From positions 895 through 64,894 of the forward strand of contig DASTDD010000214.1 of NCBI GenBank assembly GCA_035710545.1: a stretch of DNA of 64,000 nucleotides. Direction: 5' to 3'. Shown here one piece after another: positions 45,603 through 58,327 of the stretch. The notes under the pieces are model-generated. The model searched no databases and had not been told where the DNA came from. It saw only the letters and a list, made by a program, of their open reading frames with translations. Position numbers and translations under genes: made by a program. The DNA comes from Steroidobacteraceae bacterium. GTDB taxonomy: Bacteria > Pseudomonadota > Gammaproteobacteria > Steroidobacterales > Steroidobacteraceae. The first letter of the stretch is position 1, and each line of letters starts with the position of its first letter.

Positions 45603-46355
45603 TTGGAGCGGCGCGACCCCGATTCGGCCGAGATCGAGCGACTCGTGGAGGCTCGCACCTGCGAGCTGTCCGCGTTCTCGGCGCACCTGCAGGCCCTCGC
45701 CGAGCAGGAGAAATCACAACTTGCGCGCACGCTGCACGATGAGCTGGGCGGCTTGCTGACGGCGGCGAAAATGGATCTGTCATGGCTGCAGTCGCGTATG
45801 TCCGGCTCGCCGATGCAAGAACGTCTGGCGCAACTCGGCGGCGTACTCGATGAGGCGATGGACCTCAAGCGGCGGGTCGTCGAGCAGCTGCGCCCCTCCC
45901 TGCTGGATCATTTCGGTCTGCCGACCGCGATTCGCGCGCACATGGAATCCACCTGCGCTGAGAGGGGGCTCGAATGCGAGGTGCTCGTCGAGCACCCCTG
46001 CGATTCGCTCCCACGAGAGACCGCCATAGGACTGTTTCGCGTCGTCCAGGAGGGACTGTCCAACGTCGTGCGCCACTCGCAGTGTCGCCGGGTCAAGTTG
46101 GTTCTGGCGGGCGAATCGGGTCGCTGCAGGGTCACCCTCGTGGACGATGGCCGGGGATTCGATAGCGGCGCCCCGCTGCAGCCGGGCTCGCACGGGCTCA
46201 TGCGGATGCGGCAGCGAATCCGCTCTCTTGGCGGCTCCATGAGCATCGACTCGCGCCCCGGCGCGGGCACCACGGTACGGTTTGAGGTTCCGGTGGCCGC
46301 GCTGCCATCCGGCGCCCCGAGTTCACCGACAGCAGATTTTCCGACCGCTCGCTAG
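45603..46355 (+). CDS. Histidine kinase, HisKA_3 (NarX/DegS-type) dimerisation domain plus HATPase, with no sensor domain in this ORF
   Basis: LARTLHDELGGLLTAAKMDL H-box, plus N-box and G-box (HATPase_c). TTG at 45603 lies 7 nt after GGAGG. The same frame is open upstream to a TGA at 45462-64. Confidence 0.75.
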   Translation: MERRDPDSAEIERLVEARTCELSAFSAHLQALAEQEKSQLARTLHDELGGLLTAAKMDLSWLQSRMSGSPMQERLAQLGGVLDEAMDLKRRVVEQLRPSLLDHFGLPTAIRAHMESTCAERGLECEVLVEHPCDSLPRETAIGLFRVVQEGLSNVVRHSQCRRVKLVLAGESGRCRVTLVDDGRGFDSGAPLQPGSHGLMRMRQRIRSLGGSMSIDSRPGAGTTVRFEVPVAALPSGAPSSPTADFPTAR

Positions 46356-46801
46356 TGGCTCGAAGCCGGGGGCGCCCACTTCGAATGCCCGTCCACCACG
46401 ATCGCCTTGAGCAGGGCGATGTCACGCATCTTGTCGAGAAAGTAGTCGGCTCCCGCGGCGAAACAGTGGTCACGCACGAAGTCGGACGCGTAGTTGGTCA
46501 GCACGACGATGAGCGGCTGTGACTGGGGCGGATACATCTGGCGGGTGTGCCGGATCACGGCGACGCCGTTGCCCTCCGCGAGCTCGATGTCCACGACCAG
46601 AACGTCAAAGACCGCTTCCTGCAGGCGCTGCAGGGCTTCACTCTGCGTGGTGGCCTGGGCCGCGACTGCCACGCGACCCGGCTCGGACAGGAGGTCGACG
46701 AGGCGCCGCGTCAGCACCGCCGAGTCCTCGATCAGGAGGATACGCCGCTCGACTGCGGGCGTGTCACCGGCGCCGGGGGAGTGCACGTGGGCCGTCGCCA
46801 T
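46352..46801 (-). CDS. Single-domain response regulator (CheY-like receiver)
   Basis: RILLIEDSAV...DVLVVDIELAEGNG...VVLTNYA...ADYFLDK. 149 aa. The stop overlaps the kinase stop (CTAG). Confidence 0.85.
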   Translation of the reverse strand: MATAHVHSPGAGDTPAVERRILLIEDSAVLTRRLVDLLSEPGRVAVAAQATTQSEALQRLQEAVFDVLVVDIELAEGNGVAVIRHTRQMYPPQSQPLIVVLTNYASDFVRDHCFAAGADYFLDKMRDIALLKAIVVDGHSKWAPPASSH

Positions 46802-46804
46802 GAC

Positions 46805-47443
46805 TTACTGGAGCAGATTGTTCTTGATGGCGTAGTACGTGATGTCGGCATTCGTCTTCATGCTCATCTTCTCCAGGATCCTGGTGCGGTAGGTGCTGAC
46901 CGTCTTGACGCTCAGAAACAGCTTGGCCGCGATCTCGGACACGCTCTTGCCTTCGGCGAGCTTGCAGAAGATCTGGAATTCACGCTCCGAGAGCACACTG
47001 TGGCGCGGCTCGCCCGCGGCACCCTGCATCCCGCTGACGAGCATCTCGGCCAGTTCCGGACTCACATATCGCCCGCCGCGCACGGCCGCACGAATCGCCC
47101 GGCACAGCTCGCCGTCATCGGCCGTCTTGCTCACGAAGCCGCTGGCGCCGGCCCGCAGGACGTTCAGTCCGTACTGGTTCTCGGGGTAGGCGCTCAGGAC
47201 CAGCGTGGCCACCGTCTCGTGATGCGCCTTGATCTGCCGCAGCACGTCGAGCCCTGACATGTCGGGCAGCGAGAGATCCAGCAACAGCACGTCGCACGTC
47301 GCCGACCGGAGCAGCGCCAGGGCTTCGCGCCCGGTCTTGGCTTCGCCCGCCCAGCTGAAGTCGGGCTGGCTTTCGATGATCTGCTTCAGCCCGAGACGCA
47401 CGAGCTGATGATCGTCTACGACTGCGACACGGGTGGCTGGCAT
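46805..47443 (-). CDS. NarL/FixJ (LuxR-type HTH) response regulator
   Basis: RVAVVDDHQLVRLGLKQI...DVLLLDLSLPDMSG receiver, and C-terminal LSEREFQIFCKLAEGKSVSEIAAKLFLSVKTVSTYR. Confidence 0.9.
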   Translation of the reverse strand: MPATRVAVVDDHQLVRLGLKQIIESQPDFSWAGEAKTGREALALLRSATCDVLLLDLSLPDMSGLDVLRQIKAHHETVATLVLSAYPENQYGLNVLRAGASGFVSKTADDGELCRAIRAAVRGGRYVSPELAEMLVSGMQGAAGEPRHSVLSEREFQIFCKLAEGKSVSEIAAKLFLSVKTVSTYRTRILEKMSMKTNADITYYAIKNNLLQ

Positions 47444-47654
47444 GATGGCGTCGTGTTTGCCTTGTGTGCTTACCGGGACCGCGACCGTGTTTCCCATGGG
47501 GCAAAGAAGGTACGCGCGTGCCCGGTCAGGCGGATGTGGGAGTCGCGGAGCGTGCGTGGCAGCGTAAGCCTCACCATCGTGTAGGAATCGTCCGACAGGC
47601 GGAAGATCCCTGCTGTGAACGCCACGGGGACCGCAGCTCCCATGTCCGCCCGGC

Positions 47655-49049
47655 TCAGGGCGCCGAATCCTGCGCGTTCACCGGCTCTTCCTTGGCATCC
47701 ACACCCACCGATTCCTTGCCGTTGTAGGCCTCCAGGCGGTTATACAGCGTCTTGAGGCTCACCCCGAGAATCTCGGCGGCCTTGCGCTTCACGTGGCCGC
47801 AGTATGCGAGTGTGGCCATGGTCACCCGCCGCTCGACCTCCTCGAGGGGCGTTCCCACCCGGATCGTGATCGTCATGCTGTCCTCGCCCTTGGGCGCGCT
47901 GTCCGCGTTTCCGATCTCGAACTCGATCACCTCGTCAGCCATGATGAACGTTCGTTGCACGTAGTTCTTCAGCTCACGCACATTGCCGGGCCACGCATGC
48001 TGGTAGAGGCGGACGAGCGCATCGCGTGAGAAGGTCTTGTTGGTTCCCTCGCCGCGGTTGAGCTCATCGAGGAAGAACTGCGCCAGCTGCTCGATATCGG
48101 AGCCGCGCTCACGCAGCGGCGGAAGGCGGATCGGAAACACGTTGAGCCGGTGGTAGAGATCTTCCCGAAGCTTGCCATCGGTGACGGCCTTCTCGGGCTC
48201 GCGGTTGGTCGCACAGATGACGCGCACGTCGCTGGCTATGGTCTGGGTACCGCCGACCCGGGTCACCGTCCCGGTCTCGAGCACGCGCAGCAGTTTCACC
48301 TGCAGCTCCATGGGCATCTCGGTGATCTCATCGAGAAAGATCGTGCCGCCGTTGGCGCGCTCGAAAAAGCCCTTGTGCTGGCGGTCGGCGCCGGTGAAGC
48401 TGCCGCGCTCATGCCCGAACAGCTCGCTTTCGATGAGCTGCGGGGCGACGGCGCCGCAATTGAGGGGCAGGAATGCGGCATCGCGCCGTCGCGAAAGCTC
48501 GTGCACCGTGGCGGCAGCGAGCTCCTTTCCGGTTCCGCTTTCGCCGATGAGAATCACCGTCGCGGAGGTCGGGGCCACGCGGCTGAGCTGATCGTAAAGG
48601 ACTTGCATGCGCGGGGAGCTGCCCAGGATTCGTCCGAAACGTCCCAGCCGCCGCAATTCCTCGCGCAGCTCGCCGATCTCATGCTGCAGGGCCGAGGTCT
48701 TCTTGGCGTGACGAAGGACGGCCTGCACCCGGTCGAGGTCCGCCGGTTTCACGAGGTAATCGCTCGCGCCCGCGCGCAGCGCCGCTACTGCGCTGTCGAC
48801 CGTCGCGTGGCCGGTCACGATGATGACTTCGGTCGCCTCCGGCTTCTCCAGCTCACGCACCAGCTCGATCCCCTCCCCATCCGGAAGGCGCAGATCGGTC
48901 AGCAGAACATCCGGACGCTGCCGTCCGAGCTCGATCCGGGCATCCCGCAGGCTGTGCGCGCGAGCACTGGTAAACCCTTCCATGCGGGCGACTTCCTGAA
49001 GCCAGTCCACGACATCCGCGTCGTCGTCGACTATCAAAGCGTGTGCCAT
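47655..49049 (-). CDS. Sigma54-dependent (NtrC-family) response regulator / bacterial enhancer-binding protein
   Basis: Receiver (LIVDDD..LLTDLRLPDG), AAA+ (GESGTGKE, the GAFTGA-type loop ERGSFTGA, RVICATN), and a Fis-type HTH (AAEILGVSLKTLYNRL). Good SD (GAGGA). Confidence 0.9.
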   Translation of the reverse strand: MAHALIVDDDADVVDWLQEVARMEGFTSARAHSLRDARIELGRQRPDVLLTDLRLPDGEGIELVRELEKPEATEVIIVTGHATVDSAVAALRAGASDYLVKPADLDRVQAVLRHAKKTSALQHEIGELREELRRLGRFGRILGSSPRMQVLYDQLSRVAPTSATVILIGESGTGKELAAATVHELSRRRDAAFLPLNCGAVAPQLIESELFGHERGSFTGADRQHKGFFERANGGTIFLDEITEMPMELQVKLLRVLETGTVTRVGGTQTIASDVRVICATNREPEKAVTDGKLREDLYHRLNVFPIRLPPLRERGSDIEQLAQFFLDELNRGEGTNKTFSRDALVRLYQHAWPGNVRELKNYVQRTFIMADEVIEFEIGNADSAPKGEDSMTITIRVGTPLEEVERRVTMATLAYCGHVKRKAAEILGVSLKTLYNRLEAYNGKESVGVDAKEEPVNAQDSAP

Positions 49050-49402: not shown

Positions 49403-50593
49403 TCAGAGATCGACCGCACCCGGCGAAGCGCGGCTCAGGGGCAAGCCCGAGATCCCGCTCGCGATGATGGAGCTCACCATGACGACGAGCGTGATTCCCG
49501 CCAGCTCCCGTGCGAACGGCGCGCTCAGCCCGCGATCGATGGCGAGCGCCAGACAGTACAGGGTGGCGACGCCTCGCGGGCCGAACCAGGCGACTCCCCG
49601 CCAATGGGACTCGGGCACCGCGACACCTCCCAGGCCCAGGCGCACGGCGAGCGGCCGTATCAGCAGAAGCAGCAGGGCTGCGAAGACGAGCATCCGCGCT
49701 CGGAATTCGACGCTGGCAACGAGCGAACCCAGGAGCACGATGACGGACAGCCAGGCACACCGCTCGATTCGCCCGGCGATCCGCAGTACCCGCGGCATCA
49801 GTGGGCGGTTTCGCAGGGGGCGCCACAAGCGGCCGCCATGGCTCAGCGCGACGCCGGCTGCAAACACCGCCGGAAACCCGTCCGTGCGCATCAGGAGTGC
49901 GGCTCCATAAGCCAGGGCAGCCGCCGCAAAGACCATGGCCTCCTCGAGGAAATCCGTCTGTCGCTCCGGATCCAGCAGCGTGATGCAGCGCGCGGCGCCC
50001 GCCCCGGTCAGCCAGCCGATGCTGAAGCCACCGGCGACCGCCCAAAGCGCCATGAGGGACATTGAGCTCAGTGCGCCGGTGTCCGAGTCGCTCAGTCCCA
50101 TCATTGCAAGAACCAGCAGCACGAGGGCGGTGGCCAGACCGTTGTTGAGGCCCGCCTCGGCGCCGAGCACGAACGACAGGCCGTCGTGCTCGCCTTCGGA
50201 GTGAGGCATCGTATCCGAGGCCAGTACCGAGTCGGTCGGCGCGACAATCGCCCCGAGCAGCAACGACTGCGCGAGGCTCATGTCGAACATCAGATGGGCG
50301 ACTGCTGCAGCCATTGCCGCGGCCGCCGCCATGGCCAGCGTCGAGAGTCGCACCGGCATCTGCCAGAAGCGCCACCGGAGGGGCACTCGCAGGCGCAGTC
50401 CCGCGCAAAATAGACAGATCAGCAGTGCAATCTCGCTCAGGGACTCGATCGGTGCGCCATCGTCCACCAGCTGAGGCCGCAGCAGCCGCAATCCGAACGG
50501 ACCGAGAACCATGCCCAGCGCGAGCGCGACGACCGCCGCCAGAGCGGGGCGCCTGAGCAGCACGAAGTCGATTCTATTGCCGGGCGTGCTCAC
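49403..50593 (-). CDS. Cation:proton antiporter (CPA1, Na+/H+ exchanger family)
   Basis: 396 aa and polytopic, with Na_H_Exchanger-like segments (LLGAIVAPTD). GTG start at 50593 overlaps the upstream gene's end by 20 nt. Confidence 0.8.
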   Translation of the reverse strand: MSTPGNRIDFVLLRRPALAAVVALALGMVLGPFGLRLLRPQLVDDGAPIESLSEIALLICLFCAGLRLRVPLRWRFWQMPVRLSTLAMAAAAAMAAAVAHLMFDMSLAQSLLLGAIVAPTDSVLASDTMPHSEGEHDGLSFVLGAEAGLNNGLATALVLLVLAMMGLSDSDTGALSSMSLMALWAVAGGFSIGWLTGAGAARCITLLDPERQTDFLEEAMVFAAAALAYGAALLMRTDGFPAVFAAGVALSHGGRLWRPLRNRPLMPRVLRIAGRIERCAWLSVIVLLGSLVASVEFRARMLVFAALLLLLIRPLAVRLGLGGVAVPESHWRGVAWFGPRGVATLYCLALAIDRGLSAPFARELAGITLVVMVSSIIASGISGLPLSRASPGAVDL

Positions 50594-51062
50594 CGTAGCT
50601 CATGACGACTGTCCCGCCGGCAGGCGGTTCACCGGGCAACATCCGGATCTGCTGGCGGTCGTTCATCAAGTCCTCGAACTGCCGCAACACCACCTGCCGC
50701 ACGTACTCAGGCAGATGATCATCCAGCGCGTTGCGGTATACCTCGAGCGCATGATCCTCCCCGCGCTCGCACTCGTCTACGAGCGCGCCGTCGTCATTCA
50801 GCGTCAGTGCGGCATGCAGATTGACCCAGCCGCGCCGCGCCCCGCCCGGTATTACCCAGCGAATGCCGGGGTCACCGCCGCAGCGATCGATGAGATCGCG
50901 CAACTCAGCGGCTGCGCTGCGCCGGCGATCCGCAATTGCCGAGAAGAGCGCCCGCAGGGAGGAGCTGCCGACGTGCTCCGCGCACGTCCGAAATCCGCGC
51001 TCACCTGTCCGAGTGACGCTCAAAAGTTCGTTCAGGGCGACGCTCAAAAAGCGATGGCTCAT
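50574..51062 (-). CDS. DUF2383 / PA2169-family four-helix-bundle (ferritin-like) protein
   Basis: LNELLSVTRTGERGFRTCAEHV...LFSAIADRRRSAAAELRDLI is the TIGR02284-like pattern. Start at MSHRF (cat at 51060-62). Confidence 0.7.
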   Translation of the reverse strand: MSHRFLSVALNELLSVTRTGERGFRTCAEHVGSSSLRALFSAIADRRRSAAAELRDLIDRCGGDPGIRWVIPGGARRGWVNLHAALTLNDDGALVDECERGEDHALEVYRNALDDHLPEYVRQVVLRQFEDLMNDRQQIRMLPGEPPAGGTVVMSYGEHARQ

Positions 51063-51557
51063 GGGACACCTCAACATCCGAGAACGAGCCGCGAGTGCCG
51101 CCGGAGCGGATTCGGGCGGCTCGCAATCCAGCAGGAGATGTGCCCATCGGGGCTCGCGGGTGACTCGAAAATCGGCCGCTGCCGGTGGCTCCCGCGGTCG
51201 CCCCGCGAGAGCGCCGAGCCGCGGGAATTTTTTTCACGGCAGGTATGATTTACACGCAGCGGGGGAGCTGCCGCGGCTGTCTTCTCCGTCCGCCCGACCC
51301 ATCCTTGGTTGGTGCACGACCACGCGGCCCAACCTGATGCCGCAAGGAACGTGAGTGCCGTGTTGAGATGGCAGGCGCGACATAATGCTGCGCGCTTTGC
51401 GGCCCCGGAAGCGGCCCCAGCCGGATCTCCACAGGCTGCGACCGGCCCGGGCGACCTGTGTGCGGAGGTTCTGCGGGTCTCGGGGAGCCTTGTGAATCCC
51501 TCGACTTCCGCTCCTGAGCCCAGAGCTCGAGCATGGCCTCTGCGTGGCTGCCTGCGC

Positions 51558-51573
51558 TGGCACGAGCGTTGCA
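51558..51573 (+). promoter_or_regulatory. Sigma54 promoter P1, TGGCACGAGCGTTGCA
   Basis: Matches TGGCACG-N4-TTGCW at every conserved position. GG at 51559-60 and GC at 51571-72. Predicted TSS near 51584. Confidence 0.6.
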
Positions 51574-51581
51574 TACGGGAT

Positions 51582-51596
51582 GGGCACGCCCTTTGC
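51582..51596 (+). promoter_or_regulatory. Sigma54 promoter P2, GGGCACGCCCTTTGC
   Basis: GGCAC-N5-TTGC with correct spacing, 24 bp downstream of P1. Predicted TSS near 51608. Overlaps the small hairpin ACGCCC-TTTGC-GGGCGT-TTTT (51586-51606). Confidence 0.45.
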
Positions 51597-51701
51597 GGGC
51601 GTTTTTGGCGTATCAGATTCGCGCCATGGCCCTCGGGCGGTGGCGCCTACAGAAGACCCCCCGTTTGGCGGGCTGTGGTGCGACCAGCCCGCTCTTTTTT
51701 T
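51584..51701 (+). ncRNA. Candidate sigma54-dependent small RNA or terminator-containing 5' leader (about 95-118 nt)
   Basis: Bounded by P1/P2 and an intrinsic terminator. No SD-preceded ORF inside. Lies in a 670-bp intergenic gap of the regulatory island. Confidence 0.35.
51668..51701 (+). terminator. Rho-independent terminator
   Basis: 8-bp stem GCGGGCTG (51668-75) / CAGCCCGC (51685-92) with a 9-nt loop, followed by TCTTTTTTT. Confidence 0.65.
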
Positions 51702-51782
51702 GCCCGCTGCAGACCGGGGACCTCACAGGTCGCCAACAGCTAACAGTTGCACGCGGCGCGCGAAGGGTTCACATTTCGCACC

Positions 51783-52070
51783 ATGGACGGGGCGCAGCAG
51801 ACGGCAATACACCAGGCGCTGGTCACAGTGCAGCAGGCTGTGACCAGCATGACCTTCCCCAGCTGCGATCAGGGTGATTTGATCGAGCTCATCGATCGGA
51901 TCGAAGAGCAGCTGCATGCCAACCACCCGAACGTTCCCATGATGTGCACGTTTCTCAACTCGATCGCACGCAGCCTGCGTGCGCAGCCGGAAGCGCGCGA
52001 AGTATGCCTCGTCATCGAGGATGCGATCGGAGCGGCCGGCCTCCCCAGCACCTGGCAGTCCGGAATCTGA
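51783..52070 (+). CDS. Hypothetical small cytoplasmic protein (95 aa; 107 aa if it starts at TTG 51747)
   Basis: High third-position GC and helical-looking sequence (DLIELIDRIEEQLHANHP). No recognisable family and a weak SD. Stops 6 nt from the convergent hybrid kinase stop. Confidence 0.4.
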   Translation: MDGAQQTAIHQALVTVQQAVTSMTFPSCDQGDLIELIDRIEEQLHANHPNVPMMCTFLNSIARSLRAQPEAREVCLVIEDAIGAAGLPSTWQSGI

Positions 52071-52076
52071 GTACAG

Positions 52077-53738
52077 TCACCTGGCGCCGCTTGCCAGGCG
52101 GCGCACCATCGGCACGAACGCATCGAGATCGACCGGTTTGGCCACGTGCAGGTCGAATCCGGCGTCCATTGCCGCTGCGACATCGCTCTTCGAGGCATAG
52201 CCGGTAACGGCGATCGCCAGCAGCTGCCGCCCTGTCTGCAAAGCGCGCAGCCTGCGCACCAGCGAATACCCATCCTCCTCGGGCATTGCGATGTCGGTCA
52301 CCACGATGTCGAAGTGCGCATCGGGCTCCTGCACCTTCGCGAAGGCGGAACCGGCCGAGTCCGTCACCGTCACGCGCGCCCCTTCCAGCCTCAGTGTCTC
52401 GGCGACCACGGTGCGCGCATCGGACTCGTCATCCACCACCAGAATGGAAAGGCCACGCAGGCTGTCCCCGTCGCGGCTGCGACCGGCGCCGTCTGAGGAG
52501 GGTGCCTCCGCCGCGCGCCACGCCGGTCGCGCCGGGAACCGGATCGTGAAAGCCGCACCGGCGCCCGGGCCGCCGCTCATGGCGGAGACCGAGCCGCCAT
52601 GCAGAGTGACGATCTCACGCACCAGAGCGAGCCCGAGTCCCAGTCCTCCTGCCTGACGGGTGCTCGAGCTGTCGCCCTGGCGAAACCTGTCGAAGACATG
52701 CGGCAGAAGATCGGCGCCGATTCCCTGCCCCGTGTCGCGCACCGTCAGCTCCGCGAACCCGCTCCGATTGCGCAGGGTCACCGTGATGCGTCCGCCCGCC
52801 GGTGTGAATTTCAAAGCATTCGAAAGCAGGTTGGAGATGACCTGCTGCAGCCGGTCCGGATCGCCGCGCAGCGCCCCCCCGCCCGGCTCGAAGTCAGCCA
52901 CGATCGCGATGGATTTGGCCGCGGCCACCGGTCTGGCCAGATCGAGCGCGGCCGCAGCGACCTGGGCGAGTTGCATCGGGCGCGGCTCGATGCGCAGCTT
53001 GCCGGTCTCGATGCGCCCGAGATCGAGCAGGTCGTTCACCATTTTCAGCTGCGCACGCGCGCTATGGTCGATGCGCGCGCAGATCGAGGCCACCTCCGGG
53101 TCCTCGGCTCGCTTCAGGGCGAGAATGCGGTTCCAGCCCAGGATGGCATTCAGCGGCGAGCGCAGCTCGTGCGAGAACATCGACAGAAACTGATCCTTGC
53201 CGCGATTGGCGGACTCCGCTTCCGTCCGCAGCCGCCGCTCATTCTCGACCGCCTCCATCTGCCGGCGTCCCTGAGTCGCGGCTGCTGCAGCCTCCACGCT
53301 GACATTGCGCGAAGTCAGGAACAGCGCGGAGGCGCCACCACCGTTGTGCACCGAGCGGCCTCGCAGGGCGATCGACTGCGGGAGGCCACCGGGCCACCGG
53401 GTTTGCACCAGCAGGTCGAGATCACCGCCCTCACGCAGTGCCGTGTCGAGCATGTCGATCAGCACATCGCGATACTCGTCCGCGATCCGGCTCACCAGGT
53501 CCCTGTAGTCCGGCAGCGCGTCCGGCGGCCACCCGAACTCCGCCTTGAATTGGGAATTGGCCTGCAATGCTCGCGTGGCGCCATCGATGCGGCAGAAGCC
53601 GAGGCGCGCGATCGCGAGCACGATGTCCAGTTCGTCCTTGCGCAGCGCGAGGGAAGCGCACAGCGCCTGCGCGAGCGCCAGCGCCTGATCCTGCGCAGCA
53701 CTGGGGGAACCGGGGCTGTCGTCGTGAATTGATCTCAT
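52077..53738 (-). CDS. Hybrid sensor histidine kinase/response regulator (PAS-like, HisKA, HATPase, REC), cytoplasmic
   Basis: FLSMFSHELRSPLNAILGW H-box, HATPase N/G boxes, and a C-terminal receiver ILVVDDE...DIVVTDIAMPEEDG...AKP. No TM segments. Confidence 0.9.
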   Translation of the reverse strand: MRSIHDDSPGSPSAAQDQALALAQALCASLALRKDELDIVLAIARLGFCRIDGATRALQANSQFKAEFGWPPDALPDYRDLVSRIADEYRDVLIDMLDTALREGGDLDLLVQTRWPGGLPQSIALRGRSVHNGGGASALFLTSRNVSVEAAAAATQGRRQMEAVENERRLRTEAESANRGKDQFLSMFSHELRSPLNAILGWNRILALKRAEDPEVASICARIDHSARAQLKMVNDLLDLGRIETGKLRIEPRPMQLAQVAAAALDLARPVAAAKSIAIVADFEPGGGALRGDPDRLQQVISNLLSNALKFTPAGGRITVTLRNRSGFAELTVRDTGQGIGADLLPHVFDRFRQGDSSSTRQAGGLGLGLALVREIVTLHGGSVSAMSGGPGAGAAFTIRFPARPAWRAAEAPSSDGAGRSRDGDSLRGLSILVVDDESDARTVVAETLRLEGARVTVTDSAGSAFAKVQEPDAHFDIVVTDIAMPEEDGYSLVRRLRALQTGRQLLAIAVTGYASKSDVAAAMDAGFDLHVAKPVDLDAFVPMVRRLASGAR

Positions 53739-53885
53739 ACCGTTCGCATTGATCTCGCAGCGACAGCGCGCGGTTTACGGCGTTTCTTACACGCCGTTGC
53801 AAGTTCTCCGTCGGGGGCGGAACCCGGGGGCACTGAAACGGCGGAGCGAGCCCCTGAGGAGCGCCTGCCGCTTCCTCTGAAGCTC

Positions 53886-53900
53886 TGGCATAGCTGTTGC
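53886..53900 (+). promoter_or_regulatory. Sigma54 promoter TGGCATAGCTGTTGC upstream of rpoN
   Basis: TGGCAT-N5-TTGCT with correct GG/GC spacing. The predicted TSS near 53912 is about 30 nt upstream of the rpoN ATG. GAGGA SD at 53927-31. Confidence 0.6.
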
Positions 53901-53940
53901 TGTGATTTCAGTCGATCGCTTTGCTCGAGGATTCCCGCCA

Positions 53941-55299
53941 ATGCCCTATGCCGTAATGGGACTGCGCCTGAAGCAGCAGCTCACCCTCACACCGAGGCTG
54001 CAGCAATCCGTCAAGCTGTTACAGCTCTCGGCTCTGGAGTGTGTGCAAGAACTGCACCAGGCCATCGCCCAGAACCCTTTTCTCGAGGAAGTGGCCGAGA
54101 ACTCGGATACGCGCTCGCAGGCCGAGGAACCCGCTGAATCCTCGCACGATGACCTGGATTTCTCCGGCGGCATCTCCGGCGGCGGCGGCGGCGATGACAC
54201 CCCGGACTGGACCGAATGGACGGCCTCTCCCTCCACCCTGCATGACTCGCTTCATGAGCAACTGCTGCTGTTGGGCTTGACCGAGCGCGACTACGCGCTC
54301 GCGAATCTCGTCGTCGATGCCCTGGACGAGGACGGTTTTCTCAGGCAGCCCCTGGAGGAGATTCAGCGATTCGCGCCGGGCATCGCCCCCGGCGAGATCG
54401 AGACGGCCCTGCGCATCGTGCAGACACTCGAGCCGAGCGGCATCGCGGCGCGGAGTCTCGGGGAATGCCTGGCCTTGCAACTCTATGCACTCGAGCGCAC
54501 GACCCCGGGACGCGAGCTGGCCCTGGAGATCGTGCAAAACCGGCTGCCGCTCATGGCGGCGCGCGACAACACGCGGCTACTGGAGGCGCTCGGCTGCTCG
54601 GAAGAGGCGCTCCGGGAGGCGATCGAGCTGATCCGCAGCCTGGATCCGCGGCCAGGCTCCAAGGTGGGCAGTTTCGAGCCGCGGGCGATCGTGCCCGATG
54701 TGATCGTGCGCAAGGAAAAGAAGCGCTGGGCCGTCAGCATCAACTCGGCCATCTACCCGCGCATCCGCGTCAATCAACAGTATGCCGATTACTTCCGCCA
54801 GGCGCGGGATGGCGAGACGGCGCTGCTCGCGCAGCATCTGCAGGAGGCTCGCTGGCTGGTCCGCAACCTCGAGCAGCGCTTCCTCACGATCCAGCGGGTC
54901 GCGGAGGCGGTGGTGACGCGGCAGCGTAATTTCTTCGACTACGGCGACCTGGCAATGCGTCCGTTGACGCTGCGAGAGATCGCCGACGAGCTGGGGCTGC
55001 ATGAGTCGACCGTATCGCGTGCGACGAGCCACAAGTACATGGCGACTCCACGCGGCGTGGTCGCCTTCAAGCGCTTCTTCTCACGCCAGCTGGCGACGAC
55101 CAGCGGCGGCTCCTGCTCCGCCACGGCCATTCGCGCGCTGCTGCGCGAATTCATCGCCGCCGAGGATCGCCGCAATCCGTTGTCCGATGTGCAGCTCACC
55201 GAGTTGCTGGCCGACCGCGGGGTGAAGGTAGCGCGGCGGACCGTCACGAAATACCGCCGCTCGATGCAGCTGCCAGCCGTGGATTTTCGGCGGGCGTGA
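53941..55299 (+). CDS. rpoN: RNA polymerase sigma-54 factor
   Basis: Region I LRLKQQLTLTPRLQQSVKLLQLSALE, an acidic region II, and region III with the RpoN box ARRTVTKYR. 452 aa. Not in the usual lptB-rpoN-hpf-ptsN context. Confidence 0.9.
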   Translation: MPYAVMGLRLKQQLTLTPRLQQSVKLLQLSALECVQELHQAIAQNPFLEEVAENSDTRSQAEEPAESSHDDLDFSGGISGGGGGDDTPDWTEWTASPSTLHDSLHEQLLLLGLTERDYALANLVVDALDEDGFLRQPLEEIQRFAPGIAPGEIETALRIVQTLEPSGIAARSLGECLALQLYALERTTPGRELALEIVQNRLPLMAARDNTRLLEALGCSEEALREAIELIRSLDPRPGSKVGSFEPRAIVPDVIVRKEKKRWAVSINSAIYPRIRVNQQYADYFRQARDGETALLAQHLQEARWLVRNLEQRFLTIQRVAEAVVTRQRNFFDYGDLAMRPLTLREIADELGLHESTVSRATSHKYMATPRGVVAFKRFFSRQLATTSGGSCSATAIRALLREFIAAEDRRNPLSDVQLTELLADRGVKVARRTVTKYRRSMQLPAVDFRRA

Positions 55300-55364: not shown

Positions 55365-56246
55365 TCATCTACGTGAGGACTCTGTGGCGCCCTGCGCAAA
55401 CCGGCCTGATGCATCACTGAAGACGATCTCGACGCGGCGGTTCTGCTGACGTCCCGCGGCGCTATCGTTCGAGGCCACCGGATACGCCTTGCCCAGGCCG
55501 CGCGTCCGATACTGATCCTCCGGCACGCCGCGCGACTCGAGCTCCGTGGCGACCGCCTCGGCACGCCGCTGGGACAGTGCCTGGTTGTAGTCATCGGAGC
55601 CACGGCTGTCGGTGTGGCCCTCGATGATGACCCGCGTCTGGGGATTCGCCTTCAGATACGTGGCCAGACGATCGAGACTGAGACTGGCGCCGGGCTTCAG
55701 GCTCGCCTGTCCAGTGTCGAACAGCACATCGCCAAGTGTCACGACCACTCCACGGTCAGTCTGCTTGGCCTTGAGATCCGCAAGCTGCTGCTGGGCGTTC
55801 GCGAGTTGAGTCTGGGCGGCCAGCGCCTGGCTCTTCGCGCTCTGTGCCTCGGCCTGGGCGTTCGCCGCCTGTAATTGCGCGTTCTGGGTCTGGCGTTCGC
55901 GGCTGGCCAGCAGGATCTTGTTACGATCCCCCTGCGCACGAGCGACTTCCTGATGCGCTTGCGCCTCGGTCACACGCGCTTCGCCGGCTTCCGCATGGCG
56001 ACGTGCAAGATACGCGAGATGATCCACGATCGCCGGCGGCTGCCGCTGCTGGAGTGCACCTTCTGCCTGCTGCAGCGAGGCGCGTGCCGCCTGCAGATCG
56101 TCGCTGGCGGCCTGCTGCGCCAGGGGCTCCTGGGATAGCGTGTCGATTGCAGCCCGTGCCTGCTCGATCTGCTCGTTGCGTTGGGGTGCCGTGGCGCACG
56201 CGCCCAGCACGATGGCGACGGCCCCGATTACTGTGACTGTCTTCAT
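55365..56246 (-). CDS. OmpA-family lipoprotein with an N-terminal DUF4398-like coiled region
   Basis: Lipobox MKTVTVIGAVAIVLGAC. Ala/Gln-rich helical region. C-terminal OmpA_C (FDTGQASLKP...IEGHTDSRGSDDYNQALSQRRAEAV...NRRVEI). Confidence 0.85.
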   Translation of the reverse strand: MKTVTVIGAVAIVLGACATAPQRNEQIEQARAAIDTLSQEPLAQQAASDDLQAARASLQQAEGALQQRQPPAIVDHLAYLARRHAEAGEARVTEAQAHQEVARAQGDRNKILLASRERQTQNAQLQAANAQAEAQSAKSQALAAQTQLANAQQQLADLKAKQTDRGVVVTLGDVLFDTGQASLKPGASLSLDRLATYLKANPQTRVIIEGHTDSRGSDDYNQALSQRRAEAVATELESRGVPEDQYRTRGLGKAYPVASNDSAAGRQQNRRVEIVFSDASGRFAQGATESSRR

Positions 56247-56263
56247 GGCGTTCTCCTTGGCCT

Positions 56264-56818
56264 TTAGTTCGGACCCTGATCAGGGCTCGAGGCGCCACTC
56301 GATTGGGGGGCTCGTGGCGGCGGACTTGGCGGCGAGGTTGTATCCGGAGGCGGTGCGGCCGGCGGCGAAGATGTCTCGGGCAGCTGCCCAGCTGGCGCAG
56401 TCGCCGGCGGTGCCTCGCTCGATTGCGGCGTCCCTGGCGCGCCCTGCATGGCGCCCTGTCCGTTACGCTCCGATTCCTCCCGCAAAGTCTCGTTGCTCTG
56501 GGTGACCTCGCGGGCGGCGTGCTGCGCCTCTCCGGCGGAAGCTCGTGCGGAGGCTACGTCGGCGTCCGCCTCGGCGGATTCGGCGTCGCGGCGCGCGTCT
56601 GCATATCTCCTGTCGCTGTTCGCCTTTTCCGCATTGCTGAGCTCATCGTGAGCGCGCTGCAGATCGGCGGCGGCGTATCGCTGCGCGTTGGTCTTGTCCG
56701 CCTGCTGCACAACGGCGCGCGCGCGTGTCAGCTCCTGTGTTGGTTGTGGCTCCGTGGCGCAGGCCGCGGCAAGGACCCCCGCGATGCTGGCCGGAATCAA
56801 CGCTGCTCGAAATGTCAT
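56264..56818 (-). CDS. DUF4398-like lipoprotein with a Pro-rich tail
   Basis: ATG at 56818 after GGGGGAG. Lipobox AGVLAAAC. Has QELTRARAVVQQADKTNAQRYAAADLQRAHDEL. 17 nt upstream of the OmpA-family gene. Confidence 0.65.
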   Translation of the reverse strand: MTFRAALIPASIAGVLAAACATEPQPTQELTRARAVVQQADKTNAQRYAAADLQRAHDELSNAEKANSDRRYADARRDAESAEADADVASARASAGEAQHAAREVTQSNETLREESERNGQGAMQGAPGTPQSSEAPPATAPAGQLPETSSPPAAPPPDTTSPPSPPPRAPQSSGASSPDQGPN

Positions 56819-56880
56819 GAAATTCTCCCCCGGCTTCTGGCCGACTGCGGGGTTCATGATCTCGCGCGCGGCGTGGGCGG

Positions 56881-56905
56881 AATGTCAGCGCGGCGAGTGC
56901 GTTCC
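56881..56905 (-). promoter_or_regulatory. ECF-type promoter-like element GGAAC-N16-CATT upstream of the DUF4398/OmpA pair
   Basis: One mismatch to the EcfG-type consensus GGAAC-N16-17-CGTT. About 60 nt upstream of the ATG at 56818. Confidence 0.3.
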
Positions 56906-56974
56906 GGCGTGTGCGGCGTATTGGACCGTAGGAGTTCTCTGACTAGAGTCCGACGCAGGGAGCCGCGACCTCTA

Positions 56975-57325
56975 TCAATGGGTCCGCTGCTGCTTGAGCC
57001 CCGCCGCCAGGTTGCGGGGCGCGTCGGCCAATCTGGCATCGACCGATGATCGAGTTGGGTCGCTAGACCGCGGAGCGCGGCCCATCGTGCGGGCGGCGCC
57101 GATGATGCTGCAAAATCTGTCCGCTGGCGTACGCAATGCTGTCTTCGCGCCGCGGGAGCCGCGCGCCAGGGCCATGGCGTGGGCCAGGGCACTTGGCTTG
57201 TCCGTGAAGGTTGCCACAGGCTCCGGAGAGGAATTCCGCAACACATCCCACCGGTGGGCGCTCGTTGCGCAGATCCTATAGATTGGGGTGCTCTCGGTCT
57301 GATTCGGCTGCTTCATCGCGATCAT
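56975..57325 (-). CDS. Hypothetical protein (about 116 aa; the N-terminal half is faintly DUF2188-like)
   Basis: The MIAMKQPNQTESTPIYRICATSAHRWDVLRNSSPEPVATFTDKPSALAHAMALARG portion looks protein-like, but the rest is low-complexity. The start is uncertain. Confidence 0.3.
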   Translation of the reverse strand: MIAMKQPNQTESTPIYRICATSAHRWDVLRNSSPEPVATFTDKPSALAHAMALARGSRGAKTALRTPADRFCSIIGAARTMGRAPRSSDPTRSSVDARLADAPRNLAAGLKQQRTH

Positions 57326-57700
57326 CCACTCGCCGTCTGTCTCGTCCGGCGTCCGGTCACGTTCTTGTGCGCCGGATCCGTGCACTGCACGGGCCTCGGT
57401 TTTCCTTCCACCCAAGGAGGTTCGAGCAAGAAGCACTCCTGCGCGGACGGCGCAGCCGCTGCCGGGGCGGTGGCCAGCTGGCCCGCGGCGCCATTCTGCG
57501 ATGCCGGCCCGCCAGCGCGCGGCCCCGCCGCAAGACTCGTAGGACAGTTCTTACAGCAGCTCGGGAGGATTGACGCCTCCTTCCGGAGACCCTTTCCGAC
57601 TTTGGCGCAGCCCACGACCCGGTACCTTGGCCCTCAAGCGGGGATGCCTTGCTTGGCGAAGTGCGCCGTACTTTCGGCAGCTCAGCAGAGAGGGTAACAA

Positions 57701-58327
57701 ATGGTGACTGATGACATGGTGGCCCTCGTGCCCCAACTCCACACTTTTGCTCGCTCGTTGACGCGCGACGGCGTCCGTGCCGAGGATCTCGTTCAGGAAG
57801 CGCTCATGCGCGCGTTCAACAACATCGACCGCTTCAGGCCCGGCACCAATCTGAAAGCCTGGCTGTTCACGATCGTGCGCAACGAGCACTACTCCCAGCT
57901 GCGCCGGCGCAAGTTCGAGGCCCATGGTGTGGATACGGATCTGCTGCCGGAGCCGAGCGTGCCACCCGATCACGATGGCAAGCTCGAGCTGCGCGACCTG
58001 AACCGTGCCCTGGCCTCCCTTTCGCCCGGCCAGCGGACCGCACTCATTCTGGTCAGCGCCAGCGGCTTTTCGTATGAAGAGGCCGCAGAGATTTGTGGCT
58101 GCGCGGTCGGTACGATCAAGAGCAGGGTCGCGCGCGCTCGCGAGACCCTCATGCAGATGCTCGAGGGCCACGTGCCGATTCCGCGGACCCTCAACGATGA
58201 GGACGATCTGCCCTGCGTGCCGCATGCAGCACGGCACCCGGAGCCGCGCGTGAGCCACCGGCCATCAGTGCGCCGGAACCTGTCCGGGTTCAGTCTTCCT
58301 CTGCCGGCAGCGGCACCGGCTGCGTAG
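57701..58327 (+). CDS. ECF sigma factor (sigma-70 family), EcfG-like region 2
   Basis: LVPQLHTFARSLTRDGVRAEDLVQEALMRAFNNIDRFRPGTNLKAWLFTIVRNEHYS (region 2) and region 4 SYEEAAEICGCAVGTIKSRVARAR. An alternative ATG is at 57716. Confidence 0.85.
   Translation: MVTDDMVALVPQLHTFARSLTRDGVRAEDLVQEALMRAFNNIDRFRPGTNLKAWLFTIVRNEHYSQLRRRKFEAHGVDTDLLPEPSVPPDHDGKLELRDLNRALASLSPGQRTALILVSASGFSYEEAAEICGCAVGTIKSRVARARETLMQMLEGHVPIPRTLNDEDDLPCVPHAARHPEPRVSHRPSVRRNLSGFSLPLPAAAPAA

Follow-up and report, generated by a model that had tools for sequence, protein, structure and literature searches.

The sequence between positions 51558 and 51701 of a 64,000-nucleotide stretch of DNA from a Steroidobacteraceae bacterium (contig DASTDD010000214.1; the whole stretch is called the window here) is probably a stand-alone gene for a small regulatory RNA (sRNA), which would depend on sigma-54 and on an activator for its transcription and whose likeliest mode of action is base-pairing. 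A first-pass annotation of this DNA had proposed an independent sigma-54-dependent sRNA linked to the neighbouring activator, kinase and rpoN copy. Comparison with related loci strongly supports that proposal through a sigma-54 promoter, P1, found in 134/134 instances, through short forms of the gene that mark the ends of the transcript, through covariation within an internal hairpin, HP2, and through synteny. At the level of sequence comparison, P1, the transcript boundaries, a structural constraint acting on the RNA and the gene linkage can be taken as established. The three signals from which the proposal had started (P1, a second GGGCAC-N5-TTGC element and a terminator) were confirmed at the positions given here, in nucleotides (nt) of the window:

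51558-51573, plus strand: sigma-54 promoter P1, with the -24 GG at 51559-60, the -12 GC at 51571-72 and a predicted start at about 51584
51582-51602, plus strand: second element GGGCACGCCCTTTGC with hairpin 1 (HP1); GGGCAC-N5-TTGC at 51582-51596, HP1 (ACGCCC/GGGCGT) at 51586-51602, then T5
51584-51701, plus strand: predicted small RNA, long form, from the P1-derived start to the T-run of the terminator, about 115-118 nt
51621-51646, plus strand: internal hairpin 2 (HP2), GCGCCAUGGCCCUCGGGCGGUGGCGC, variable in sequence with its pairing kept (chimera test, RNAalifold)
51654-51667, plus strand: C-rich stretch AGACCCCCCGUUUG, invariant and predicted to be largely single-stranded; candidate seed, with GUUUG just 5' of the terminator
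51668-51701, plus strand: intrinsic terminator, stem 51668-75/51685-92, loop UGGUGCGAC, then UC-U7 (ViennaRNA fold)

Promoter, invariant core and transcript boundaries

P1 (TGGCACGAGCGTTGCA) fits the consensus TGGCACG-N4-TTGCW at every conserved position, as had been claimed, and it is the one exact match on both strands of the 64-kb window. The chance expectation is a mean of 0.05 matches, and 5 of 100 dinucleotide shuffles contained one. Tolerating one mismatch yielded four additional sigma-54 sites in the window, among which the site at 53886-53901 was judged meaningful and is taken up below. Another of these matches (49033-49048, minus strand) covers the first codons of the activator gene (ATGGCACACGCTTTGAT) and was set aside as a product of chance. 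A simple promoter and terminator scan of the locus gave no match, and the sigma-70-like element there is weak.

Relatives of the element were collected from genomes and metagenomes. A 95-amino acid (aa) open reading frame (ORF) downstream of the RNA served as an anchor for 80 species-level genome loci, and in 17 of them GACCCCCCGTTTGGCGGGCTGTGGTGCGACCAGCCCGC plus a T-run lies upstream of the ORF, always on the same strand and with 0-1 mismatch. An exact-match scan of metagenomes with the core 20-mer ACCCCCCGTTTGGCGGGCTG returned at least 120 contigs; among the matches listed, one (L188) is a chance match and another (L189) is a diverged copy. The 17 genome loci and about 117 of the listed metagenome contigs make up the 134 instances with sufficient upstream DNA, and TGGCAY-N5-TTGCW precedes the same 3' module in all of them. 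The counts of terminators and of short and long forms that follow likewise refer to the matches listed.

The 3' module (AGACCCCCCGTTTGG, hairpin and T-run; 51654-51701 in the window) is nearly invariant among relatives. Its C-rich stretch is identical in the window and in the 17 genome loci, and the centroid fold of the core leaves it unpaired. The terminator stem, in which GCGGGCTG pairs with CAGCCCGC, comprises 8-9 base pairs (bp) of G+C around a 9-nt loop and is followed by TC-T7 (51693-51701). The hairpin is the dominant structure in ViennaRNA, which agrees with the earlier description of an 8-bp GC stem followed by T7 as an intrinsic terminator; the simple scan missed it because that scan accepts loops of at most 8 nt. 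A terminator is present in every complete instance, and its stem and loop are invariant in almost all of them, with rare single changes in the loop. Because the C-rich stretch and the terminator are both invariant, they yield no covariation signal. Many metagenome contigs (L084, L087, L121, L130, L145, L159 and L183) start or stop in or beside this invariant core; such ends are probably assembly-graph breaks at a sequence common to co-occurring species and are no evidence of transcription.

Two forms of the gene allow the ends of the transcript to be placed. In the short forms (n = 33) the promoter directly adjoins the module and begins 28-30 nt before ACCCCCC, so that the usual spacing from -12 to +1 puts the predicted start at the A of AGACCCCCC and gives an RNA of about 46-48 nt with the C-rich stretch at its very 5' end. 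Among 21 distinct short forms, the 10 nt from the -12 box to +1 are variable, as is the DNA upstream of the promoter, and from +1 to the T-run every base shows little or no variation. Conservation among the short forms by itself maps the transcript. The short form, found in about a quarter of the relatives, consists of the C-rich stretch and the terminator hairpin alone; since these last two parts of the RNA suffice there as the whole molecule, they are taken to be its functional core.

The long forms (n = 101, the window included) carry 55-181 nt between promoter and core. In the window the -12 C is position 51572, +1 would lie near 51584 and the U-run ends at 51701. The first-pass annotation had predicted a transcript of about 95-118 nt without an ORF led by a Shine-Dalgarno sequence, and the length predicted here from P1 falls at the upper end of that range. 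No conservation of a reading frame within the transcript was found among relatives, and the short forms (about 48 nt) are too small for any protein.

Hairpins of the long form and the second sigma-54-like element

Evidence that selection acts on the RNA comes from HP2, which closes the variable 5' region just before (A/U)CCGAAGACCCCCC. Among 79 distinct long forms there are 76 distinct 3' arms, and pairing is retained. In the chimera test, native 50-nt segments were compared with chimeras whose 5' part and 3' arm came from different sequences, and the mean energy was -21.0 kcal/mol for the native segments versus -15.9 +/- 0.3 kcal/mol for the chimeras. RNAalifold applied to a MAFFT alignment of all long forms missed the variable hairpin, whose loops were misaligned. 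The covariation was resolved by the chimera test together with a more uniform subset of 25 sequences, the window among them, in which RNAalifold predicted seven HP2 pairs, all of them (7/7) with compensatory double changes.

The element that starts 24 bp into the locus from P1 had been read as a second sigma-54 promoter. The element itself, its coordinates and its GG-N10-GC spacing stand; its role as a promoter probably does not. The succession of a P1-like GG-N10-GC spacing and GGGCAC-N5-TTGC occurred in none of 100 shuffles (0/100), and RGGNAYG-N4-TTGCG recurs in 49 of the 101 long forms, 23-30 nt past the start of P1. The other 52 long forms lack it, and so does every one of the 33 short forms. 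Where it does occur, the element coincides with the predicted P1 start site, that is, with the 5' end of the transcript, and its -12-like box reads TTGCG in 47 of 49 cases, unlike the TTGCA or TTGCT of P1. The spacer covaries with downstream bases (chimera test: native -13.3 versus chimeras -11.4 +/- 0.33 kcal/mol) and forms a hairpin with UUGCG(AC) within or beside its loop; in the window this is HP1, ACGCCC-UUUGC-GGGCGU. Half of the elements continue as TTGCGAC. The hexamer TGCGAC is over-represented in the distinct long-form 5' regions (19/85 versus 2.1 expected) and is also present in the invariant terminator loop.

The second element is thus best described, on this comparison, as mainly a 5'-terminal stem-loop of the RNA and probably not as a promoter. 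If it were a working sigma-54 promoter, two nested RNAs of about 118 and 94 nt would be made. The correct spacing speaks for this, as does the recurrence of the -24-like and -12-like boxes around a varying spacer in nearly half of the long forms, and the diverged short-form copy L189 carries GGGTAC-N5-TTGCG as the sole element in promoter position. Against it stand the distribution, position, box sequence and spacer covariation just described, and polymerases bound at P1 and at the second element would overlap, so that we consider a second promoter unlikely. In the window and its closest relatives, L001 and L152, HP1 together with T5 (51586-51606 in the window) looks like a second small terminator about 22 nt past the start; this layout is not family-wide.

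Gene neighbourhood and other sigma-54 elements

The genes and elements around the RNA that matter for its interpretation are the following:

47655-49049, minus strand: NtrC-family enhancer-binding response regulator with REC, AAA+ (GSFTGA) and Fis-type HTH domains (Pfam/NCBIfam); presumed activator of P1
49403-50593, minus strand: cation/proton antiporter gene
50574-51077, minus strand: DUF2383/PA2169-family gene
51130-51145, minus strand: sigma-54-like promoter GGGCACATCTCCTGCT, about 55 nt upstream of the DUF2383 ATG, for the DUF2383/antiporter operon
51224-51255, no strand assigned: A/T-rich element GGAATTTTTTTCACGGCAGGTATGATTTACAC, candidate activator or IHF site common to the diverging promoters
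51747-52070, plus strand: 95-aa gene with ATG at 51783 and its own promoter-like TTGCAC-N17-CACATT at 51747-51775, which ends 7 nt before the ATG; outside the RNA
52077-53738, minus strand: hybrid histidine kinase (HisKA, HATPase, REC), candidate sensor feeding the activator
53886-55299, plus strand: rpoN with its promoter TGGCATAGCTGTTGCT (53886-53901); gene 53902/53941-55299, conserved ATG at 53941

The Pfam and NCBIfam domains agree with the earlier placement of the locus among an NtrC-type activator, a hybrid kinase and rpoN. When only instances with enough flanking sequence are counted, 34/35 have the activator gene upstream of the RNA and on the other strand, and 44/45 have rpoN downstream and on the strand of the RNA; the hybrid kinase gene intervenes between these two in 36/45, and the antiporter gene occurs in 28/35, as does the DUF2383 gene. 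Minimal loci have the RNA between the activator gene and rpoN with few other genes. Starting from the activator instead, the RNA is present in three of four informative loci. The activator has the receiver Asp and the GSFTGA loop, RpoN has the RpoN box, and identity of the activator among relatives is unusually high (85-97%). None of the NCBIfam equivalog models tried on the activator (NtrC, AtoC, LuxO, ZraR, GlrR and others) reached its cutoff, and no other rpoN was found within the 64-kb window. The conserved start of rpoN is the ATG at 53941 (MPYAVMGLRLKQ) and not the GTG at 53902.

Three sigma-54-type promoters fall within about 3 kb, namely those of the RNA, of rpoN and of the DUF2383/antiporter operon. 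The near-consensus rpoN promoter is kept as TTGGCAYRGCTGTTGCT in 45/62 loci, which implies, as far as promoter sequence can tell, that sigma-54 drives its own gene or that the gene is a paralogue driven by another rpoN copy. Such a module points to a sigma-54 circuit that reinforces itself and whose output is post-transcriptional. The minus-strand promoter (reverse complement AGCA-N6-TGTGCC) is present in 40 of the 75 loci having the A/T-rich element. The latter has the form GCAC-ATTTTTCA-N5-YGTAY-N-TTTACA (TTTTTCA-N5-GGTAT-N-TTTACA in the window), and 74 loci carry its motif TTTTCA-N5-YGTAY-N-TTACA upstream of P1, the total in the sequence scanned being just 85 matches. Its distance from the minus-strand promoter is 45-105 bp among loci (about 85 bp in the window), and its distance from P1 is 78-91 bp in most short forms and 327 bp in the window. 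The element is a reasonable candidate for an activator or IHF site common to both promoters.

The stretch upstream of P1 differs between relatives. In loci of the L001 type, a second DUF2383 paralogue (149 aa; L001 3246-3695) separates the DUF2383 gene from the RNA; it has a minus-strand sigma-54-like promoter of its own, and this promoter and P1 stand back to back. The corresponding part of the window (51257-51557) is unrelated non-coding DNA of about 300 bp, which retains only the -12 half of the L001-type promoter (CTCGAGCATGG, 51526-51536). A pseudogene of the paralogue was sought in this gap with tblastn; no trace appeared apart from two short non-coding patches common with L001, and the missing paralogue looks like a past deletion.

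The whole interval between the DUF2383 gene and the 95-aa gene measures 669 bp to the TTG at 51747, in line with the gap of about 670 bp reported earlier, and 705 bp to the conserved ATG. The 95-aa ORF has 388 homologues with about 80% identity, nearly all of them in Steroidobacteraceae or unclassified gammaproteobacterial metagenome-assembled genomes. All 80 genome loci lack a Shine-Dalgarno sequence and have an element like TTGCNN-N17-CAAATT whose end is about 7 nt away from the ATG, from which we infer a promoter of its own and a leaderless messenger RNA (mRNA). The protein is confidently predicted to be a four-helix bundle (predicted local distance difference test score, pLDDT, 86.8). Its sequence is very well conserved: across 20 sequences, 50 positions do not vary, two His and two Cys among them. 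The protein has no match in Pfam or NCBIfam and none in the PDB at E < 0.9. The idea of a histidine phosphotransfer (Hpt) protein, which would have completed a LuxU-like relay, was dropped for want of a significant match in these three databases, the closest Hpt protein in the PDB appearing at E = 7.3 only. Some homologues are tagged as pyruvate dehydrogenase E2 in JGI records, which looks like a mis-annotation.

Some further features of the surroundings were noted. Some 80-100 bp upstream of the rpoN promoter there is a strongly conserved 31-bp element, GGCGTTTCTTACACGCCGTTGCAAGTTCTCC (53779-53809). The clade without that promoter has it too, as do kinase-free loci. The element resembles an imperfect inverted repeat (CTTACA-N6-TGCAAG) and may be the site of a regulator or a promoter of a different type. 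The flanks of the module (45603-47497 and 55365-58327) hold regulatory and envelope genes: a HisKA_3 kinase and a LuxR-type response regulator, which are kept beside the activator in relatives, an OmpA-DUF4398 protein, a second DUF4398 protein and an ECF-type sigma factor (57701-58327). This suggests that the module is part of a stress or envelope-response island.

Mode of action and relation to known systems

According to the proposed mechanism, sigma-54 polymerase would bind P1 and require an ATP-dependent activator, most likely the NtrC-family regulator encoded about 2.5 kb upstream, which would presumably be phosphorylated through the adjacent hybrid kinase. The transcript would begin at about 51584 and end with the strong intrinsic terminator, near 51698-51701. 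The RNA of the window would then comprise four parts, namely HP1, HP2, the exposed C-rich stretch and the terminator hairpin with its U-tail. The C-rich 5' part of the core would pair with G-rich sites, such as ribosome-binding regions, in distant mRNAs and so act in trans, and the GUUUG-hairpin-U7 would serve as a handle for an Hfq-type chaperone. Base-pairing is favoured because an exposed C-run near the 5' end, GUUUG, a stable hairpin and U7 together form the layout of a seed plus an Hfq handle. The features expected of an Hfq-type sRNA (a terminator, a long U-tail and a preceding U-rich stretch) are found here as a 9-bp G+C-rich stem, UC-U7 and GUUUG, and those of a sigma-54-dependent sRNA as a correctly placed -24/-12 promoter and a discrete non-coding unit with its own terminator.

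Several observations weigh against this reading. No conserved site complementary to 8-mers of the seed or hairpin was found within the module (about 138 loci), nor any positional enrichment. In duplex energy, the seed did not surpass control oligonucleotides when paired with the translation-initiation regions of module genes (activator, rpoN, kinase, antiporter, DUF2383, small ORF and OmpA). Target matches in the 64-kb window, which is G+C-rich, were unconvincing, the best of them lying inside coding regions and not being conserved. In the window no activator site was identified near P1, the closest candidate lying about 300 nt upstream. An orthologue of the activator with 86% identity (L205) has neither a nearby RNA nor the rest of the module. 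Finally, the invariance of the terminator stem and loop is not accounted for by simple base-pairing and hints at sequence-specific recognition by something else. As a separate observation on the L205 locus, the upstream intergenic region (1233-1695) contains two copies of a repeat of about 150-190 nt (GATGAAGCGCTGGATCGGGGCTCCTGCCCCGC...GCCAAAAAGCGTGGTTTTTGCCCG...), which may be a small repeat element tied to rearrangement.

The invariant loop leads to the first alternative for the mode of action, in which the RNA is real and sigma-54-dependent and binds or sequesters a protein, as GlmY, CrcZ and RsmZ do, by way of a UGCGAC displayed in a loop. Base-pairing sRNAs normally need no such invariance; the enrichment of UGCGAC in the 5' hairpin loop region points the same way, and so does the empty result of the target search in module and window. 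The short forms have one such loop only, however, and the longest invariant single-stranded stretch is the 5' C-run, in the typical position of a seed. Besides the activator and RpoN, the module has no constant protein that would be a candidate for RNA binding. On balance a protein-binding RNA appears rather improbable. A more specific version would make the RNA a decoy within a self-contained sigma-54 circuit, binding sigma-54, the activator or another module protein, since the 5' hairpin keeps a -24/-12-like GG-N10-GC pattern and since both this hairpin and the terminator loop show UGCGAC. If true, it would provide feedback on the adjacent rpoN, itself driven by sigma-54, comparable with 6S RNA and sigma-70 or with GlmY and RapZ, and we give it little credence.

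It is slightly less probable still that the block exerts its effect mainly as DNA, or in cis on rpoN, for example as a sigma-54 sink, an insulator or a terminator, and that its RNA is functionless. The block does always lie upstream of rpoN in the same orientation, 244-344 nt away in minimal loci, and rpoN has its own sigma-54 promoter. Yet the invariance spans exactly the transcribed part, from +1 to the U-run, the hairpins covary as RNA, and in 36/45 loci the RNA and rpoN have a convergent kinase gene between them. The reading of the element as a 200-nt leader whose terminator attenuates the 95-aa ORF (51783-52070), offered earlier as the alternative, is effectively excluded: the ORF is real, conserved and in the same orientation 81 nt downstream of the RNA in the window, but it follows the RNA in only 56 of 95 instances and is absent in 39, where the 3' end of the convergent kinase gene or the rpoN promoter comes next, it occurs in 63 of the 80 genome loci without the RNA or the window's other genes nearby, behind the gene of an unrelated small lysine/serine-rich protein, and the promoter-like element between terminator and ATG suggests that it is transcribed on its own.

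A base-pairing sRNA under sigma-54 control is the preferred reading. The locus is a high-confidence candidate that lends itself to experiment: its boundaries are clear, an activator and a sensor kinase can be named as likely, and an rpoN gene is linked to it. Its family, the Steroidobacteraceae, is little studied and common in soil metagenomes. With its seed and terminator in about 46-48 nt, the short form would rank among the smallest primary regulatory RNAs and offer a natural minimal scaffold. The family-wide invariance of about 46 nt, hairpin loop included, hints at a constraint beyond simple base-pairing.

The RNA was compared with described families and systems. The Rfam search that had been recommended as a check matched no family: none reached its gathering score in the whole window, and at E <= 10 the region 50900-52200 gave chance-level, terminator-driven matches only, for example Burkholderia ncS54 at 14.5 bits against a threshold of 43. 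No similar DNA was present in a plasmid collection, and full-text literature searches returned no description of a small RNA for Steroidobacteraceae.

The closest parallel in regulatory logic is with the Qrr RNAs of Vibrio, which have a sigma-54 promoter and are transcribed through the NtrC-family response regulator LuxO. A sigma-54 promoter and an NtrC-family response regulator are common to both systems. The gene qrr1 adjoins luxO divergently, hybrid kinases feed LuxO, and the Qrr RNAs end at a terminator and depend on Hfq. The present RNA differs in that it has no Rfam match to Qrr, even at E <= 10 in 50900-52200, that one copy is seen per locus, that the candidate seed is a C-run and not the 32-nt box of Qrr, and that it is linked to rpoN. 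The activator scores 343.7 bits with the LuxO model against a cutoff of 800, with the NtrC, AtoC and PEP-CTERM regulator models giving similar values, all below cutoff. No Hpt protein was identified in the locus, the four-helix neighbour having no significant fold match.

In the GlrK/GlrR system of Enterobacteriaceae, the glmY gene has a sigma-54 promoter under GlrR, which is encoded beside the sRNA gene and binds TGTC-N10-GACA repeats more than 100 bp upstream of glmY with the help of IHF (PMC4152352). The corresponding candidate here, judged by sequence, is the A/T-rich TGTA-N5-7-TACA found 78-91 bp upstream of P1 in short forms. The RNA has no Rfam match to GlmY or GlmZ, the activator scores 297.2 bits against a cutoff of 763 with the GlrR model, and no overlapping sigma-70 promoter was detected here; moreover, GlmY is a protein decoy. 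In the CbrA/CbrB system of Pseudomonadaceae, CrcZ and CrcY have an RpoN-dependent promoter, need the NtrC-family regulator CbrB and are encoded next to the regulator gene (PMC6292655). The present locus resembles them in its predicted sigma-54-type promoter and its linked NtrC-family regulator gene, and differs in that the RNA is divergent from the activator gene and not downstream of it. CrcZ is about 400 nt long and sequesters Hfq/Crc with repeated A-rich motifs, in contrast to the 46-160 nt predicted among the forms described here, which are G+C-rich and have no A-rich repeats.

In architecture, the short form comes closest to RybB and MicA, envelope-stress sRNAs dependent on sigma-E, in which an alternative-sigma promoter is followed by a conserved seed right at the 5' end and then by an Hfq-type terminator module. 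Exactly this layout of 5' seed and terminator recurs here. The short form differs from them in the activator-requiring sigma factor, in its length of about 46-48 nt and in its C-run seed, and it has no sequence similarity to either. In conclusion, the RNA described here is a new sRNA family within a known kind of regulator and, as such, conceptually not unexpected.

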